Source: a phage. Taken from it: 64,000 nt of DNA. The notes beneath the pieces were generated by a model. The model was not told where the DNA came from and ran no database searches. It saw only the letters and a program-made list of their open reading frames with translations. Positions within the stretch are counted from its first letter, which is position 1. Every line of letters begins with the position of its first letter. Location of the stretch: NCBI GenBank assembly GCA_017864995.1, contig GCA_017864995.1_4097.1. One strand, 5' to 3'. Below are positions 44,828 to 64,000 of the stretch, one piece after another. Both the position numbers and the translations under genes were made by a program.

Positions 44828-45952
44828 TTAATTATCTAAGCCACCAATTACACTGAACAGTGTGGTAACGTCTGAACTATTATCTATGTAAGTTCTTCTA
44901 CCAACATAATATAGTTGTCCTTTTGCTTGAATAAAAGTTACGGTCCCTGTATTGAATGTTATAATATCATTGTATGTAATGTCAGGTGGTAGTGCTGCTG
45001 ATAACGCAGTAACTTTACTTAATGCAGCACTAGTACTACCATTTATACCAGCAGCAATACTACCAGTACCATAGAACTTATTATCTTTACCAATGAATAC
45101 GTTGGCTGATGCTTGTGTAGCTGATGTTATTGCCTTACCAATTTGGAATGCGGTTCCTATGGTGTATGGTGTGCTCCTGGCTGCGTCTATGCTTTGTGTA
45201 TATCCATCCCCTAGCTGACCATTAACTTTGTCACCACATGAGTATAAAGTACCATTGAGGCTGTATATGATCCCACGGTTAGAGAAGCTAACAGCTTCTG
45301 CATTAGTCCATACTGGAGCGGTGTATGAGTTTACACGACTAGCAGTAGTTCCTAGTCCTAGTATACCATATGTGTTATCACCACATCCAAACCATTGTCC
45401 AGTACTGTTTTGATAGAACACTGAACGTTCTGTTGATTCCATGCGTACAGCATCCACAGCACCACTTTTAACGAACGAAGTGGATGAGGATGTAGTACCA
45501 GTACCCAATGCACCATAAGTGTTTGTACCAATCGCATAGATTGATCCTAGTGGTGTCATCACACGTATACAGTTATATCCCAATTGAACTTTACATTCAA
45601 ATAGGTTGTCCCATATTTCAGGAACAGCAGAAAATAAATTTGTAATTTCGAACCATGATGTTGTCGAACCAGTTAATCCTATACTGCTTTTGTTTCCTAA
45701 AATGAAAACAGTTTTGTCCTTCTTAATTATCCATGATGATAGGAAACCTATCTCACAGCTATGAACATTTGATTCTATTTGGGTAATATAATACTTAACT
45801 GTGTTATCACCCATGAATGCCGCAGCACCGGATGCAAAAAGGTTTCCAGTTTGTTTATTTAAAATGTAGTTATTGTTTCCATATACACTAACATCATAAG
45901 AACTTTCTTGTTTTTCGTTCCCATAATCAAATAACAATACGAAAGGTAACAT
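44828..45952 (-). CDS. RCC1-like repeat (beta-propeller) protein, MLPF family paralogue 1
   Basis: N-terminus MLPFVLLFDYGN; motifs LYSCGDKVNGQLGDGYT, VYGWGRNVNGELGQG; own SD AAGGAGAT. Confidence 0.65.
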   Translation of the reverse strand: MLPFVLLFDYGNEKQESSYDVSVYGNNNYILNKQTGNLFASGAAAFMGDNTVKYYITQIESNVHSCEIGFLSSWIIKKDKTVFILGNKSSIGLTGSTTSWFEITNLFSAVPEIWDNLFECKVQLGYNCIRVMTPLGSIYAIGTNTYGALGTGTTSSSTSFVKSGAVDAVRMESTERSVFYQNSTGQWFGCGDNTYGILGLGTTASRVNSYTAPVWTNAEAVSFSNRGIIYSLNGTLYSCGDKVNGQLGDGYTQSIDAARSTPYTIGTAFQIGKAITSATQASANVFIGKDNKFYGTGSIAAGINGSTSAALSKVTALSAALPPDITYNDIITFNTGTVTFIQAKGQLYYVGRRTYIDNSSDVTTLFSVIGGLDN

Positions 45953-46029
45953 GATAAAATCTCCTTGTGTTATACTTTATTTAATCATTTTATAATGTAC
46001 AATTTTACAGCGATTTAATTGAGGTACTC

Positions 46030-46680
46030 ATGAATAAAAGAAGTAAGTTCTATCAAGAATATTTCACTAAACAGAAACGATTCACAAAAAAATACTTTAC
46101 ATCACCCCACCGACCAGTTGCAAGTTACAAACGTCCTAATACTAACTATCTTACTGGTGGCAAGTTTAGTGCAAAGTTCGAATTACTTATGCGTGAAAAG
46201 AATATCAAGATGCATTACGCAGAGACGAGAAAAAACTCATCAATTATTTGCTCTGATTTTCTTGAGTACGGTTGCTTAACTTATAAATTCAATGATGTAT
46301 ATTTGTATATTGATGTTGATTGTAACAGTACTCGTATGTTTGAGATTTCAATTCACCCAAATCACAACCGTTATATAAACATTAACTTGATTGATAAAGT
46401 ACTGATTGGTATATCTAGTACTGATGGTGGTGGATTTGAATTTATTGCTTCAAAATATGATGAAGATTTCGTACTTTACCCAGTACTTGATGATGTGAAA
46501 GATATACTCAATTCATTAAAAGGAAGTCAATACAAATTATCTGAAGAACAGCTATTTCAGTACTCACTTATTCATGATGATATCGAGATATACTTAGAGT
46601 GTGCGAGAATCTTGGAGTATCTTTATAATGAATTAACAACAACTGGTAAAGTGACTGCATTCACATTATATAATATGTAA
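46030..46680 (+). CDS. hypothetical protein, EE-x-FQ motif family member (inserted in minus-strand array)
   Basis: only + strand gene inside the array; motif SEEQLFQYSLIHDD; followed by bidirectional hairpin. Confidence 0.55.
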   Translation: MNKRSKFYQEYFTKQKRFTKKYFTSPHRPVASYKRPNTNYLTGGKFSAKFELLMREKNIKMHYAETRKNSSIICSDFLEYGCLTYKFNDVYLYIDVDCNSTRMFEISIHPNHNRYININLIDKVLIGISSTDGGGFEFIASKYDEDFVLYPVLDDVKDILNSLKGSQYKLSEEQLFQYSLIHDDIEIYLECARILEYLYNELTTTGKVTAFTLYNM

Positions 46681-46687
46681 AAGAAAA

Positions 46688-46706
46688 GCCAGTACATTGT
46701 ACTGGC
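46688..46706. terminator. bidirectional terminator hairpin GCCAGTACA-T-TGTACTGGC
   Basis: perfect palindrome flanked by A-run and T-run. Confidence 0.65.
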
Positions 46707-46712
46707 TTTATT

Positions 46713-61571: not shown

Positions 61572-61644
61572 AATAAAATCTCCGTAATTAAATCATACAG
61601 TATTTACAAAAAATACCAGTACATATTTCAGTACTGACCTATTA
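61572..61644 (-). promoter_or_regulatory. variant intergenic cassette
   Basis: imperfect hairpin around 61615-61637; same variant box as 60315-60389. Confidence 0.45.
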
Positions 61645-62766
61645 TTAAAAGGGCAACGGTAACTCAGTAAAAGTACTTACGTCCGGTAAACCATACATTG
61701 AATTAGCATCACCACAGTAATACCACTTCGTAGAATCATGTACCACCGATAAACGCTGTGCACATAACACTTCCTGTATGTCATTAAACACCATCGGAAC
61801 TAACTCATATGTATCCGCATATGAAGATTCACCACCACTCGCATGAAAAGTATTCGTCCCAGCATAAAATAACTGATTAGTGTTCTTACCCACAGCAAAT
61901 GTCATCAATATCCCATCATTCTCCCATAAAGAAGAAAACTTATCAACACTACCAGAAAGCTCTGTGTAAGTACTCGTAATGGCACTCGCAGCCGCCGCAT
62001 TACCCATCTGTTTATTCAAGTTCTGTCCAGCAATAAAATATCTCGTTCGTGCACTAGAATCAGTATATAATAACCCAGTGTTCGTAGTCATCATTCCAAT
62101 GTCCTTAATCGTCATACCAGGCTGTGAATAACTTAGATACGAAGTTAAACTACCATTATTACCCAACGAACCGTTATCACTCATGCCACAACGATGTAAT
62201 ATACCACTTGTATCAACGTAGATAGTACTAACTAAACTCGTATACAACTCTTGTACATTATTCGCAATAAACACAGCAGTCGCCTTATTAGTAACCCCAC
62301 CAAATGATAGGTTATTATCAAATCCCTTAGCGTATAATTGATTATTAGTAGTAACTAACCCAATCGCGTAATAAGATATTTTCATATCCCTTACAGTACT
62401 CAAATCTACTACCCCAAATTGATGCGTAACATCTGTCCATGTGAAAATCTGTGCACTACCAACACCACCCGTTTCAAACCATTTGTCACCACAGTACAAT
62501 ATACGATTATCCTTAGTAAAGATAACTGTTACCAATCCACTACCACACGCAAACTTCACATCACTTCTAACCTTCGTCCAATCAAGTACATAGGTAGTGG
62601 TGTTATTACCTATACCTAACTTGCCATAACGGTTATAACCACGCACCCACAAATCACCACTCTTAGTAATTAATAGTAATGCGTCTCCTGTACTTATTAT
62701 TCGAAATCCCGAACTAGGATCAGGTGTAATATTTCCATAATCAAACATTCTAACAAAAGGTAACAT
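61645..62766 (-). CDS. RCC1-like repeat protein, MLPF family paralogue 14
   Basis: N-terminus MLPFVRMFDYGN. Confidence 0.6.
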   Translation of the reverse strand: MLPFVRMFDYGNITPDPSSGFRIISTGDALLLITKSGDLWVRGYNRYGKLGIGNNTTTYVLDWTKVRSDVKFACGSGLVTVIFTKDNRILYCGDKWFETGGVGSAQIFTWTDVTHQFGVVDLSTVRDMKISYYAIGLVTTNNQLYAKGFDNNLSFGGVTNKATAVFIANNVQELYTSLVSTIYVDTSGILHRCGMSDNGSLGNNGSLTSYLSYSQPGMTIKDIGMMTTNTGLLYTDSSARTRYFIAGQNLNKQMGNAAAASAITSTYTELSGSVDKFSSLWENDGILMTFAVGKNTNQLFYAGTNTFHASGGESSYADTYELVPMVFNDIQEVLCAQRLSVVHDSTKWYYCGDANSMYGLPDVSTFTELPLPF

Positions 62767-62837
62767 ATTTCCCTCCTTTATTCATTATACTATATTTAAT
62801 CAAAAAGAAAAGCCAGTACAGAGTACTGGCATAGTAT
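62767..62837 (-). promoter_or_regulatory. conserved intergenic cassette
   Basis: hairpin GCCAGTACA-G-AGTACTGGC at 62812-62830 plus conserved box. Confidence 0.6.
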
Positions 62838-63965
62838 TCAAAAAGGTAAATCAATTTGCTTAGTAATAATAGTATCTAACGGTATTGAACACAATGAGAA
62901 ATTCTTTCCACCCGTATTTTCAGGATTATATCCATTCATCCATACATTATTACCTTCGTAAAATGTATTCCAGTATAAAGACCCACTATATCGTGTATTC
63001 GAATTGAACGATGTAAAATTGAATTCTTGAAATGCTGTAAAATATGGAAGGGAACTTGAACTACTTCCCGTAAATGGGGTATGCCCAGTTGCTATTAGTT
63101 TGTTTGTATCTGCATTAATTAAAAATACAACACTAGTAGAATAGTCCAACGAATCAGGATGATATATATTACTCATATCACCTATAGTAAAACCAACATC
63201 AAAAACTTTACTATGTGCACCACTACCAGCAAAAGTAGTTCCAGTTGCATATATTTTATTATCAGATGTTATCATTACAAAACCAACACCAGAAACAAAA
63301 CTGCATTTTATATCATAAGATATATCATCAAACAACGGAACAAATGTGGTTGCATCACCCGATGTTGCTTTAACTTGAAAGCTGTTATTTGAACCTGAAC
63401 CATATACAGTTCCATCGTTTTTAATCTTAAACAATGTATCGCCAAGGTAACCGCCAAATATATTATCCACATTAGTGTCAAGTACAGTCCACGCTGAAAC
63501 ATAATTTTTATGTCCTAAACCTAATGTACCACTTCGATTCCATCCTCTTCCATAAAGTGTACCGTCTTTCATTAATATAAATGCTGTATAACCACATAAC
63601 ATTTTTTTAATTTGGGTAACATCTATACCAGTGAAATACACAGCCCAGTCAGTATATCCTTGTTGGAAAGTATTAGAATTCGTGAATGCATATGTTGAAC
63701 CTGAACCATATATTTTATCACCTTTAATAACAACGGAAAACGATCCTAACCATAAGTCATCAACTTCAGTTGTGATTTGTTGAACTGCTCCTAACGATAC
63801 AAACTGTGTACTTAAACCCGCATTATAGTTTGAATCTTCACCGTGTGCATATACAGTGCCATCTTGCATTAGAAACATTTCAAGAGTGTAACTAACAACA
63901 CTTTTCTTTATATTATTAACTTCGATTATATTCCCATAATCAAACATTCTAACAAAAGGTAACAT
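62838..63965 (-). CDS. RCC1-like repeat protein, MLPF family paralogue 15
   Basis: N-terminus MLPFVRMFDYGN; conserved upstream box begins at 63966 and runs off the window. Confidence 0.6.
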   Translation of the reverse strand: MLPFVRMFDYGNIIEVNNIKKSVVSYTLEMFLMQDGTVYAHGEDSNYNAGLSTQFVSLGAVQQITTEVDDLWLGSFSVVIKGDKIYGSGSTYAFTNSNTFQQGYTDWAVYFTGIDVTQIKKMLCGYTAFILMKDGTLYGRGWNRSGTLGLGHKNYVSAWTVLDTNVDNIFGGYLGDTLFKIKNDGTVYGSGSNNSFQVKATSGDATTFVPLFDDISYDIKCSFVSGVGFVMITSDNKIYATGTTFAGSGAHSKVFDVGFTIGDMSNIYHPDSLDYSTSVVFLINADTNKLIATGHTPFTGSSSSSLPYFTAFQEFNFTSFNSNTRYSGSLYWNTFYEGNNVWMNGYNPENTGGKNFSLCSIPLDTIITKQIDLPF

Positions 63966-64000
63966 AATTCCCTCCTTTATTCATTATACTATATTTAATC

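Follow-up and report, generated by a model that had tools for sequence, protein, structure and literature searches.

RCC1-like genes present in many copies have been described in several jumbo phages. The CBB paper (2017) reported multiple RCC1-like copies in phages 121Q and PBECO4, and identified the single homologue of GAP32 (GAP32_001) as a virion protein by mass spectrometry (MS). The phAPEC6 paper (2020) described eleven RCC1-like copies, speculated that they order DNA, nominated them for the inner body and, in its Table 1, placed gp003, gp005, gp006, gp007, gp009, gp010, gp549 and gp551 among 62 virion proteins. In phage phiKZ, the inner-body proteins are encoded in one gene cluster. The internal proteins of phage T4 are highly diverse and have only an N-terminal capsid-targeting sequence (CTS) in common; this peptide alone determines particle entry, and about 1000 molecules are packaged. 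Here we describe a tandem array of RCC1-like genes in a 64,000-nucleotide phage contig (GCA_017864995.1_4097.1 of GenBank assembly GCA_017864995.1; the whole stretch is referred to as the window). By sequence, the phage is an Asteriusvirus, i.e., a jumbo coliphage (~350 kb) of the 121Q/PBECO4/phAPEC6 type. All products of the array begin with a shared dodecapeptide (the tag), which probably mediates incorporation into the virion.

The original prediction, made from the letters of the window, did not recognize this arrangement as a described phage system. Given the 2017 and 2020 papers, that claim fails: the existence of the family, its many copies and its presence in virions had all been reported. 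What appears not to have been described previously is a portable tag that crosses folds and spans a clade, together with a late-promoter cassette for shuffling. The shared N-terminal peptide is not mentioned in the CBB (2017) and phAPEC6 (2020) papers, which treat the genes as putative DNA-condensation proteins, and the tag is not discussed in the Iyer/Aravind jumbo-phage review, a 2026 jumbo-phage review, or the Sharanji, fEgEco12 and fENko-Kae01 papers.

The array consists of 15 minus-strand genes (44828-63965) with products that, read from the open reading frames (ORFs) of the window, begin MLPF[VAT][RL][ML][FV][DK][YF][GA]N. No other start of the tag type occurs in the window, where the one other MLPF belongs to a spurious 23-aa ORF. 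Full-length genes number 13 (369-449 aa); one gene is a short form (264 aa) and one is frameshifted. The prediction of 15 tandem minus-strand paralogues with a constant N-terminal dodecapeptide was borne out at all 15 starts, as was that of two N-terminal subtypes (FDYGN in ten genes, VK[YF][GA]N in five). Its N-terminal pattern holds overall but is broader at two positions ([RL] and [GA]), and its length range of about 370-450 aa fits the 13 full-length genes but not the short or the frameshifted one. The genes, which it called consecutive, do form one array, but a plus-strand ORF (46030-46680) splits members 1 and 2. It also judged the array to run past the window end and to be probably longer, which a relative supports: phage vB_Ec-M-J, 98.7% identical over 61600-64000, carries two further tagged genes before its array ends, one RCC1-like and one Kelch. 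Judged from this relative, the array of the window phage is probably one or two genes longer than the window shows.

The tag stands apart from the rest of the proteins in its conservation. In the all-against-all alignment that had been suggested with the prediction, sequence pairs are on average 80% identical over the first 12 columns and 19% (12-35%) over the remainder, so that a constant N-terminus is followed by a diverged body; the second-best 12-column window reaches 37%. In AlphaFold2 models of members 6 and 7, which carry different tag subtypes, residues 1-10 have predicted local distance difference test (pLDDT) values of 47 and 54, respectively, and no secondary structure. For RCC1-like domains in the PDB, alignment to the family profile begins no earlier than position 17. 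Thus, the most conserved segment is predicted to be free of the fold, the pattern typical of a short linear motif that acts by binding another molecule, and in these models the tag is a separate module outside the propeller. A role as a "velcro" strand that closes the propeller was considered and rejected, as the tag is unstructured in both models and present on non-propeller bodies.

The general form of the tag is M-[LI]-P-F-x-[RQI]-[MLI]-h-x-Y-[GA]-N, where h is usually hydrophobic. Across 117 distinct tagged proteins, position 9 may be K, E, D, Q, V or T. The linker that follows has proline at position 15 in 51/117 and at position 17 in 42/117. Tag invariance is free of search bias only in annotated arrays where all neighboring genes are tagged. 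It is not evident that the tag subtype (FDYGN or VKYGN) tracks body relatedness, and orthologous bodies carry different subtypes. Tags in phAPEC6 and 121Q are almost only xRM[VIL]KYGN, and FDYGN is found in 10 of the 15 window genes. This uneven spread between genomes may reflect within-genome homogenization or co-evolution with a docking partner.

The bodies are confirmed as RCC1-like seven-bladed propellers. All of the RCC1-type motifs quoted in the original prediction are present, and the propeller that it proposed is returned by Pfam, PHROG and AlphaFold2/Foldseek alike. Nine of ten members tested matched RCC1, RCC1_2 or WD40_RLD in Pfam; PF00415 or PF13540 exceeded the gathering cut-off in eight of the ten, and WD40_RLD was matched in nine. 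Member 3 (47989-49338) had no Pfam match, but matched phrog_4219 at E 1e-15. The model of member 6, built from a 34-sequence alignment, has a mean pLDDT of 91.6 and a predicted template modeling (pTM) score of 0.88, with seven four-stranded blades in residues 22-376. In a Foldseek search, the top matches of this model were UVR8 (template modeling (TM) score 0.77, E 4e-20), RPGR, HERC1/2 and RCC1 (TM 0.65-0.77). In the model of member 7 (pTM 0.81) the propeller starts at residue 20. A profile search against the PDB identified RCC1-like domains at E 1e-66. A search of 5.8 billion proteins gave only 31 matches; the modest depth of the AlphaFold2 alignments follows from the rarity of the family outside these phages.

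The same tag was found in at least four further jumbo-phage lineages, where it is carried by Kelch, LamG/ConA-like and glycine-rich bodies. In GAP32, two proteins are tagged: GAP32_001, with an RCC1 body, and GAP32_002, which has a weak LamG/ConA-like match and is annotated as a virion structural protein. Xanthomonas phage XbC2 has six consecutive tagged genes, with one RCC1+Kelch body, one Kelch, three without a Pfam match and one RCC1. Yersinia phage fHe-Yen9-04 has five consecutive tagged RCC1-like genes. Klebsiella phage fENko-Kae01 has 13 consecutive genes with an MIPF variant of the tag, including Gly_rich_2 and LamG_3 bodies. Pectobacterium phage CBB has 11 tagged genes with Kelch, LamG_3 and other bodies. 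An Asteriusvirus array, that of vB_Ec-M-J, is closed by a tagged Kelch protein (EcMJ_585) annotated as a virion structural protein. The 33 tagged proteins from outside Asteriusvirus share M1, L2, P3, F4, Y10, G11 and N12, an invariance required by the search pattern, and only 15% overall identity; their bodies are RCC1-like (12), Kelch (6), LamG_3 (5) or without a Pfam match (the rest). LamG-type and phrog_6011-type tagged proteins gave no informative match in a sequence search against the PDB. Scans of IMG/VR with degenerate DNA patterns located long tagged ORFs almost exclusively on jumbo-phage contigs 348-378 kb in length and on one fragment of 109 kb; the remaining matches, mostly short ORFs and a few longer singletons on unrelated contigs, were treated as chance. 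Bacterial RCC1 homologues are untagged and instead have signal peptides, pilin-like N-termini or Big_2 domains. This distribution shows the tag to be a portable module shared across unrelated folds.

Several tagged genes in these relatives deserve separate mention. Two genes for tagged virion proteins of CBB stand singly: CBB_144 (CBB 75120-75884) lies among anaerobic ribonucleotide reductase genes, and CBB_247 (CBB 173132-173866) adjoins endonuclease VII. Insertions of this solitary kind suggest that tagged genes are mobile one cassette at a time. A tagged ORF of 244 aa with a glycine-rich body (MLPFGRMVKYGNKIEYKP...), absent from the annotation, was identified on the minus strand of phAPEC6 (19306-20037). 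It overlaps the annotated 100-aa gp004 in another frame, and the phAPEC6 annotation is probably wrong there. Homologues of this glycine-rich ORF occur in 121Q and ECO103 4-12-1 (245 aa) and in fENko-Kae01 (ENKO_525c, Gly_rich_2, 17 MS spectra); the window has no glycine-rich tagged member. A second unannotated tagged ORF is present at 23819-24928 of phAPEC6. A second tag variant, MLPFPIISNTN(I), occurs on RCC1-like proteins of fHe-Yen9-04 and on XbC2_586, next to canonical tags of the same arrays.

Many GenBank records annotate the family (phrog_4219) as "regulator of chromosome condensation" or "DNA condensation protein", and the proteins could accordingly be thought to order the 350-kb genome in the head, as eukaryotic RCC1 binds chromatin. 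The name recurs in Pfam, PHROG and GenBank, the proteins are virion-associated, and the authors of the phAPEC6 paper speculated along these lines. The name reflects fold homology only, and several properties of the genes conflict with such a role. The proteins are not basic: the bodies have low charge, with isoelectric points of 4.8-9.0, lysine plus arginine about equal to aspartate plus glutamate, and 36-43% glycine, serine, threonine and asparagine. Kelch, LamG-like and glycine-rich proteins, none of which is linked to DNA, share the same tag and genomic position, and members are freely replaced between near-identical phages, unlike a core packaging function. RCC1 itself acts in Ran nucleotide exchange on chromatin, and bacteria and phages are not known to have Ran or nucleosomes. 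The annotated role in DNA condensation is not supported, and we consider it highly improbable.

Virion proteomics, which had been suggested as a check on packaging, is available from published studies of relatives and detects tagged proteins in the particles. All eight of the "DNA condensation" proteins detected by MS in phAPEC6 virions carry the tag (hypergeometric p 2e-6), each with 1-5 peptides. In CBB, 9 of the 11 tagged proteins are among the 55 detected by MS from 554 ORFs (hypergeometric p about 2e-8). These nine cover all six CBB virion proteins without a GAP32 homologue (CBB_144, CBB_247, CBB_536, CBB_537, CBB_551 and CBB_552). CBB has tail whiskers, and the 2017 paper expected whisker proteins among its CBB-specific structural genes; the case for the tagged CBB-specific proteins as whisker components is circumstantial. 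In fENko-Kae01, the glycine-rich tagged protein was represented by 17 spectra and three RCC1-like tagged proteins by 2-3 each, with 52 for the portal.

The tag might be read by something other than the virion, either a phage chaperone or assembly factor or a Clp-type protease that sets stability or timing, with detection in virions being secondary. ClpA-like and ClpP-like proteins are encoded by these phages, and the tag always starts exactly from Met1 and is predicted to be exposed and disordered. On the other hand, no link between Clp and the tag was identified, three independent studies found tagged proteins to accumulate in purified particles, and a degradation signal would not explain the enrichment. 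We give this explanation a very low probability.

The genes of the array, all on the minus strand, and the one ORF that interrupts them are as follows (the upper coordinate of each array gene is the position of its ATG in plus-strand numbering; RBS, ribosome-binding site).

44828-45952, minus strand: member 1, 374 aa, MLPFVLLFDYGN, RCC1-like; TTAAATA at 45978-45984, no hairpin
46030-46680, plus strand: interrupting ORF between members 1 and 2, 216 aa, untagged, phrog_34359 (unknown function), outside the family
46713-47918, minus strand: member 2, 401 aa, MLPFARMVKYAN, RCC1-like
47989-49338, minus strand: member 3, 449 aa, MLPFVRLFDYGN, divergent body; no cassette, RBS only
49734-50528, minus strand: member 4, short form, 264 aa, MLPFARMVKYGN
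50636-51817, minus strand: member 5, 393 aa, MLPFTRMVKYGN
51888-53039, minus strand: member 6, 383 aa, MLPFARMVKYGN, modeled with AlphaFold2
53111-54301, minus strand: member 7, 396 aa, MLPFVRLFDYGN, modeled with AlphaFold2
54378-55532, minus strand: member 8, 384 aa, MLPFVRMFDYGN
55603-56782, minus strand: member 9, frameshifted; MLPFVRLFDYGN and 47 codons, then a stop; the rest of the body is ORF 55603-56679 in another frame
56853-57962, minus strand: member 10, 369 aa, MLPFVRLFDYGN; no cassette
57971-59173, minus strand: member 11, 400 aa, MLPFARMVKFGN; no cassette
59184-60314, minus strand: member 12, 376 aa, MLPFVRMFDYGN
60390-61571, minus strand: member 13, 393 aa, MLPFVRMFDYGN
61645-62766, minus strand: member 14, 373 aa, MLPFVRMFDYGN
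62838-63965, minus strand: member 15, 375 aa, MLPFVRMFDYGN

The short member 4 has 81% identity to phAPEC6 gp007 (269 aa), which is likewise short and was detected by MS in virions. Member 9 has a 1-nucleotide frameshift after 59 codons, and the same lesion is present in the closest relative, phage ECO103 4-12-1. The lesion is common to two independently assembled phage genomes (window 55603-56782; L002 14977-16156); thus, member 9 is a real pseudogene or recoding site and not a sequencing error. Two plus-strand ORFs of 107-109 aa (51579-51908 and 54895-55218) lie antisense within array genes, are of low complexity and are probably not genes.

The array is located near the genome end, outside the tail-gene module and beside early genes and small membrane-protein genes. 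The latter form a tandem run of seven small ORFs (104-123 aa; 42351-44790, plus strand) that resemble hydrophobic multi-pass membrane proteins, lie immediately upstream of the array and are convergent with it; two of them match PHROGs of unknown function. CBB has the same layout, with small membrane proteins (CBB_543-547) followed by a minus-strand tagged array (CBB_548-554).

Upstream of most array genes is a conserved non-coding block. The motif [TG]TAAATA occurs 25-30 nucleotides upstream of the ATG in 12 of the 15 genes and is followed by a strong GGAGG. Eleven genes have a full cassette, in which a GC-rich hairpin (core CCAGTAC...GTACTGG) and a T-run lie further upstream of the promoter; member 1, beside the divergent plus-strand ORF, has the promoter without the hairpin, and members 3, 10 and 11 have no cassette but retain the tag. 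The 15-mer TTAAATATAGTATAA occurs ten times in the window, always within the array. The cassettes and the two other hairpins are listed here.

44797-44823, no strand assigned: bidirectional terminator-like hairpin, CCAGTACT...AGTACTGG core, between the convergent plus-strand membrane-protein genes and the 3' end of the array
46685-46709, no strand assigned: bidirectional terminator-like hairpin after member 2 and the plus-strand ORF
47919-47982, minus strand: cassette of member 2, hairpin 47964-47982 and T-run, TTAAATA 47945-47951, GGAGG
50529-50592, minus strand: cassette of member 4, hairpin 50574-50592, TTAAATA 50555-50561
51818-51883, minus strand: cassette of member 5, hairpin 51860-51883, TTAAATA 51843-51849
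53040-53107, minus strand: cassette of member 6, hairpin 53082-53107, TTAAATA 53065-53071
54302-54372, minus strand: cassette of member 7, hairpin 54345-54372, TTAAATA 54328-54334
55533-55598, minus strand: cassette of member 8, hairpin 55573-55598, TTAAATA 55558-55564
56783-56846, minus strand: cassette of member 9, hairpin 56828-56846, TTAAATA 56809-56815
60315-60384, minus strand: variant cassette of member 12, hairpin ~60360-60384 and T-run, GTAAATA 60345-60351, GGAGA
61572-61638, minus strand: variant cassette of member 13, hairpin 61615-61638, GTAAATA 61601-61607
62767-62830, minus strand: cassette of member 14, hairpin 62812-62830, TTAAATA 62793-62799
63966-64000, minus strand: cassette of member 15, cut by the window end, TTAAATA 63992-63998, GGAGG

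Terminator-like sites are enriched (26 found, 8.0 expected), and a scan of the array for sigma-70-type promoters showed no enrichment (89 found, 98 expected). The head and tail genes of phAPEC6 have (T)ATAAATA upstream, which is of the T4 late-promoter type, with TTAAATA, CTAAATA and GTAAATA variants, and its early genes instead have TTGACA-N17-TATAAT. The cassette is therefore best read as a putative terminator plus late promoter, a timing that would fit virion proteins. An early promoter of the sigma-70/PeSL (promoter early stem-loop) type was rejected, given the lack of TTGACA 16-18 nucleotides from TATAAT, the lack of enrichment and the match to late promoters. Late-type sequences (AATAAATA and TATAAATATAGT, the second also given as TATAAATA) were also identified upstream of two untagged virion-protein genes of the window. 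These virion structural protein genes (12741-13898, minus strand, phrog_10468; 32557-34068, plus strand, phrog_20398) lie among early-type small genes; apart from the former, the first 44 kb of the window contain no long gene on the minus strand.

Because the conserved block reaches from the coding sequence into upstream non-coding DNA (hairpin, promoter and RBS), the constant 5' end could be a by-product of gene conversion or recombination, or of a constraint on translation initiation, among diverged tandem duplicates. Within the array, codons 2-4 are near-invariant in DNA and Gly11 is GGG in 12 of the 15 genes, and recombination at the tag boundary is documented for member 10 (see below). 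Beyond the array, several synonymous codons are used for the invariant residues across genera: in the 117 distinct tagged proteins, Pro3 is CCA in 55 and CCT in 55, Tyr10 is TAC in 62 and TAT in 53, and Gly11 is GGG in 54, GGA in 30 and GGT in 23. The tag is kept on genes that lack the cassette and at unrelated loci (CBB_144 and CBB_247), it is found on non-homologous bodies, which is more than duplication alone can make, and tagged proteins are strongly enriched among virion proteins. Given the synonymous variation across genera and the retention of the tag without the cassette, selection on the tag acts at the protein level, and an origin purely at the level of nucleic acid seems to us a very long shot.

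Array content differs between near-identical phages, as the synteny comparison proposed with the original prediction made clear. Among 14 window members compared with ECO103 4-12-1, seven have orthologues at ≥98% identity, one at 83%, and six have none (best match 24-42%). At a coverage of at least 80%, one phage record matches an 8-kb segment of the array and 15 match a control segment of 8 kb located 20 kb away; the genome that matches best is ECO103 4-12-1 for the array segment and Ecwhy_1 for the control. The window as a whole is mosaic. Its early-gene region (30000-38000) has 99.5% identity to Ecwhy_1 and ~87% to ECO103 4-12-1, the array (52000-60000) is closest to ECO103 4-12-1 (98.9%), and the distal end is closest to vB_Ec-M-J (98.7%).

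Member 10 records one such exchange. From nucleotide 37 on, it has 95% DNA identity to its orthologues in 121Q and phAPEC6, but its tag contains VRLFDY, as opposed to [AG]RMVKY in the orthologues, and its upstream sequence is entirely different from the canonical cassette that they possess. The near-identical body with a different tag subtype and upstream region places a recombination breakpoint at approximately codon 13. The ratio of nonsynonymous to synonymous substitution rates (dN/dS) for orthologues is 0.14-0.26, with 0.13 for neighboring genes (four orthologue pairs, p 0.05), indicating purifying selection. Strong positive selection on the bodies was considered and is not supported, as dN/dS is only marginally above that of the neighbors. 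Thus, diversity arises mainly from exchange of cassettes and not from fast point evolution.

We propose that Rak2-like jumbo phages possess a broader class of tagged accessory virion proteins, and that the array is its expanded form in Asteriusvirus. Each protein comprises the dodecapeptide, a short proline-rich linker (Pro15, Pro17) and a variable globular binding module. The dodecapeptide would be a short linear docking motif recognized at one shared site of a conserved structural component, allowing incorporation of any tagged body. Most genes would be separate late transcription units, each with a terminator hairpin, a T4-late-like [TG]TAAATA promoter and a strong RBS, and the terminator-promoter-RBS-tag block may serve as a homology patch through which bodies are gained, lost and swapped between related phages. 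The modules may be external, low-copy, alternative adhesins, for which the capsid or tail "hair" fibers or the baseplate periphery are candidate sites, with 13-17 paralogues competing for few docking sites.

An external position is favored for several reasons. The bodies are near-neutral and rich in glycine, serine, threonine and asparagine, and have lectin-like or ligand-binding folds. Their bacterial relatives are extracytoplasmic. In the unrelated phage phiCD211, an RCC1-like domain occurs in a 1759-aa protein within the tail-fiber module. Low abundance by MS fits many paralogues that share few sites, and rigid 40-kDa propellers would presumably be poorly suited to ejection through a tail tube. 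What is shown is the protein architecture and fold, the spread of the tag over unrelated bodies, its conservation at the amino-acid level, a promoter motif of late type, the turnover of cassettes and the MS detection of tagged proteins in virions of relatives; docking by the tag, placement outside the particle and action as adhesins are inferred. Taken whole, from docking tag to interchangeable modules to external low-copy adhesins, the model is tentative, and we rate it slightly below an even chance; the narrower claim of virion incorporation through the tag is probable.

Alternatively, the dodecapeptide could be a CTS like that of T4 that binds the scaffolding core or the inner capsid surface while the prohead assembles, and the proteins would then be packaged in the head, perhaps in the inner body, and either ejected as a variable set of effectors or anti-defense proteins or retained. 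The T4 internal-protein pattern of a constant tag, unrelated bodies and a hyperplastic locus matches the array. The genomes of these phages include T4-like genes for a prohead core scaffold/protease, a portal and a major head protein; the RCC1-like proteins were nominated for the inner body of phAPEC6 by its authors; the inner-body genes of phiKZ are likewise clustered; and the array lies outside the tail-gene module. T4 internal proteins are small and charged, and the array bodies, which are rigid, near-neutral propellers or jelly rolls of 20-45 kDa, are unlike them. No conserved position was found for a T4-type [LI]-x-E cleavage site after the tag (25/117 proteins have one within the first 30 residues), and position 9 of the tag is variable. 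By MS the tagged proteins are scarce compared with the portal, in contrast to the roughly 1000 molecules of internal protein packaged by T4, and both the fold types and the bacterial relatives point to extracellular ligand binding. Overall, packaging in the head is unlikely in our judgment. The original prediction had offered a shared virion-attachment or capsid-targeting peptide, or a set of receptor-binding modules. Of this, a separate, portable N-terminal module with a link to the virion stands; an external position is only tentatively favored over capsid targeting.

Several observations weigh against tag-mediated docking of external adhesins. All of the virion proteomics comes from relatives of the window phage, and just 4 of the 13 tagged proteins of fENko-Kae01 were detected, three of them at 2-3 spectra. 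The virion preparations also held non-structural proteins (thymidylate synthase, RecA and topoisomerase in phAPEC6, many enzymes in fENko-Kae01); thus, detection by MS is imperfect evidence for incorporation. Part of the tag-residue invariance over the 117 proteins comes from the search pattern itself, and a variant without YGN (MLPFPIISNTN) exists. The docking site and the partner of the tag are putative. The array genes are far from the tail and fiber module, and the T4-like head morphogenesis genes of these phages and the inner body of phAPEC6 favor an internal location. Finally, dN/dS gives no gene-wide signal of an arms race.

If the tag is sufficient for incorporation, this would explain why these phages keep and reshuffle many "chromosome condensation" genes. 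Such sufficiency would further correct a misleading annotation in dozens of GenBank records, supply candidate components of the accessory or "hairy" structures seen in phAPEC6 and CBB, and offer a very small tag with which to load foreign proteins onto or into jumbo-phage particles, as has been done with the T4 CTS and Hoc/Soc. It would also constitute a second independent case of the T4 internal-protein logic, extending over at least four unrelated folds and >100 distinct proteins. A more speculative extension is a plug-and-play display system, in which the 12-residue peptide is enough to dock any protein at a limited set of sites on the particle, 10-17 modules per genome (RCC1, Kelch, LamG, Gly-rich) compete for these sites, virions of one burst differ in their combinations, and new modules are captured by recombination at the promoter-tag cassette. 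We regard this as possible but doubtful; if true, it would amount to a combinatorial, bet-hedging adhesin coat and could explain the "hairs" of phAPEC6 and CBB.

Compared with known systems, the bodies are most readily placed among proteins with RCC1-like domains (RCC1, UVR8, RPGR, HERC1/2 and BLIP-II), with which they share the seven-bladed propeller and repeats of the GxNxxGQLG type. They differ in that the phage array has no Ran or chromatin context, identity is only 15-19%, and the N-terminal tag is present in no cellular homologue. The basic DNA- or histone-binding character of RCC1 proper was not found; in its place at the N-terminus is a hydrophobic tag and not a basic tail.

In its regulatory layout, the array resembles the PeSL cassettes of T4-type phages, in which units of terminator hairpin and promoter flank variable genes and provide the homology through which modules are shuffled in hyperplastic regions; the breakpoint in the array is likewise at the cassette/tag boundary. 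The differences are that the array promoter is a late T4-like [TG]TAAATA, not an early sigma-70 promoter, and that the conserved block of the array runs 36 nucleotides into the coding sequence.

Branched-fiber phages such as CBA120, G7C and phiK64-1/RaK2 have conserved N-terminal anchor domains on interchangeable tailspikes or receptor-binding proteins. The array shares with these a constant N-terminus followed by a variable C-terminal (distal) module, several modules per genome, and turnover of the repertoire. Known tailspike anchors are folded, usually trimeric and ~100 residues or more in length, and their genes are in the tail module. In contrast, the array has a 12-residue peptide that is predicted to be disordered, monomer-type propellers, and genes at the genome end; a folded anchor of ~100 residues encoded in a tail-fiber module was not found. 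Encapsulin cargo-loading peptides are also short terminal peptides, which route diverse cargo to an HK97-fold shell; they are usually C-terminal and bind the interior, and the array tag differs in being N-terminal and without sequence relation to them.

The closest known analogy, as the original prediction had suggested, is with the CTS that heads IPI, IPII, IPIII and their variable relatives, the internal proteins of T4 and the T-even phages. The tag has no sequence similarity to the T4 CTS (MKTYQEFIAE). The bodies encoded by the array class are propellers and jelly rolls of 20-75 kDa, their abundance is apparently low, and they have no conserved [LI]xE site. The T4 proteins are located inside the head, and for the array class the virion association comes from MS of relatives. 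What the two systems have in common is a conserved peptide, starting at Met1, on unrelated and rapidly exchanged proteins encoded in a hyperplastic region of a T4-related myovirus.

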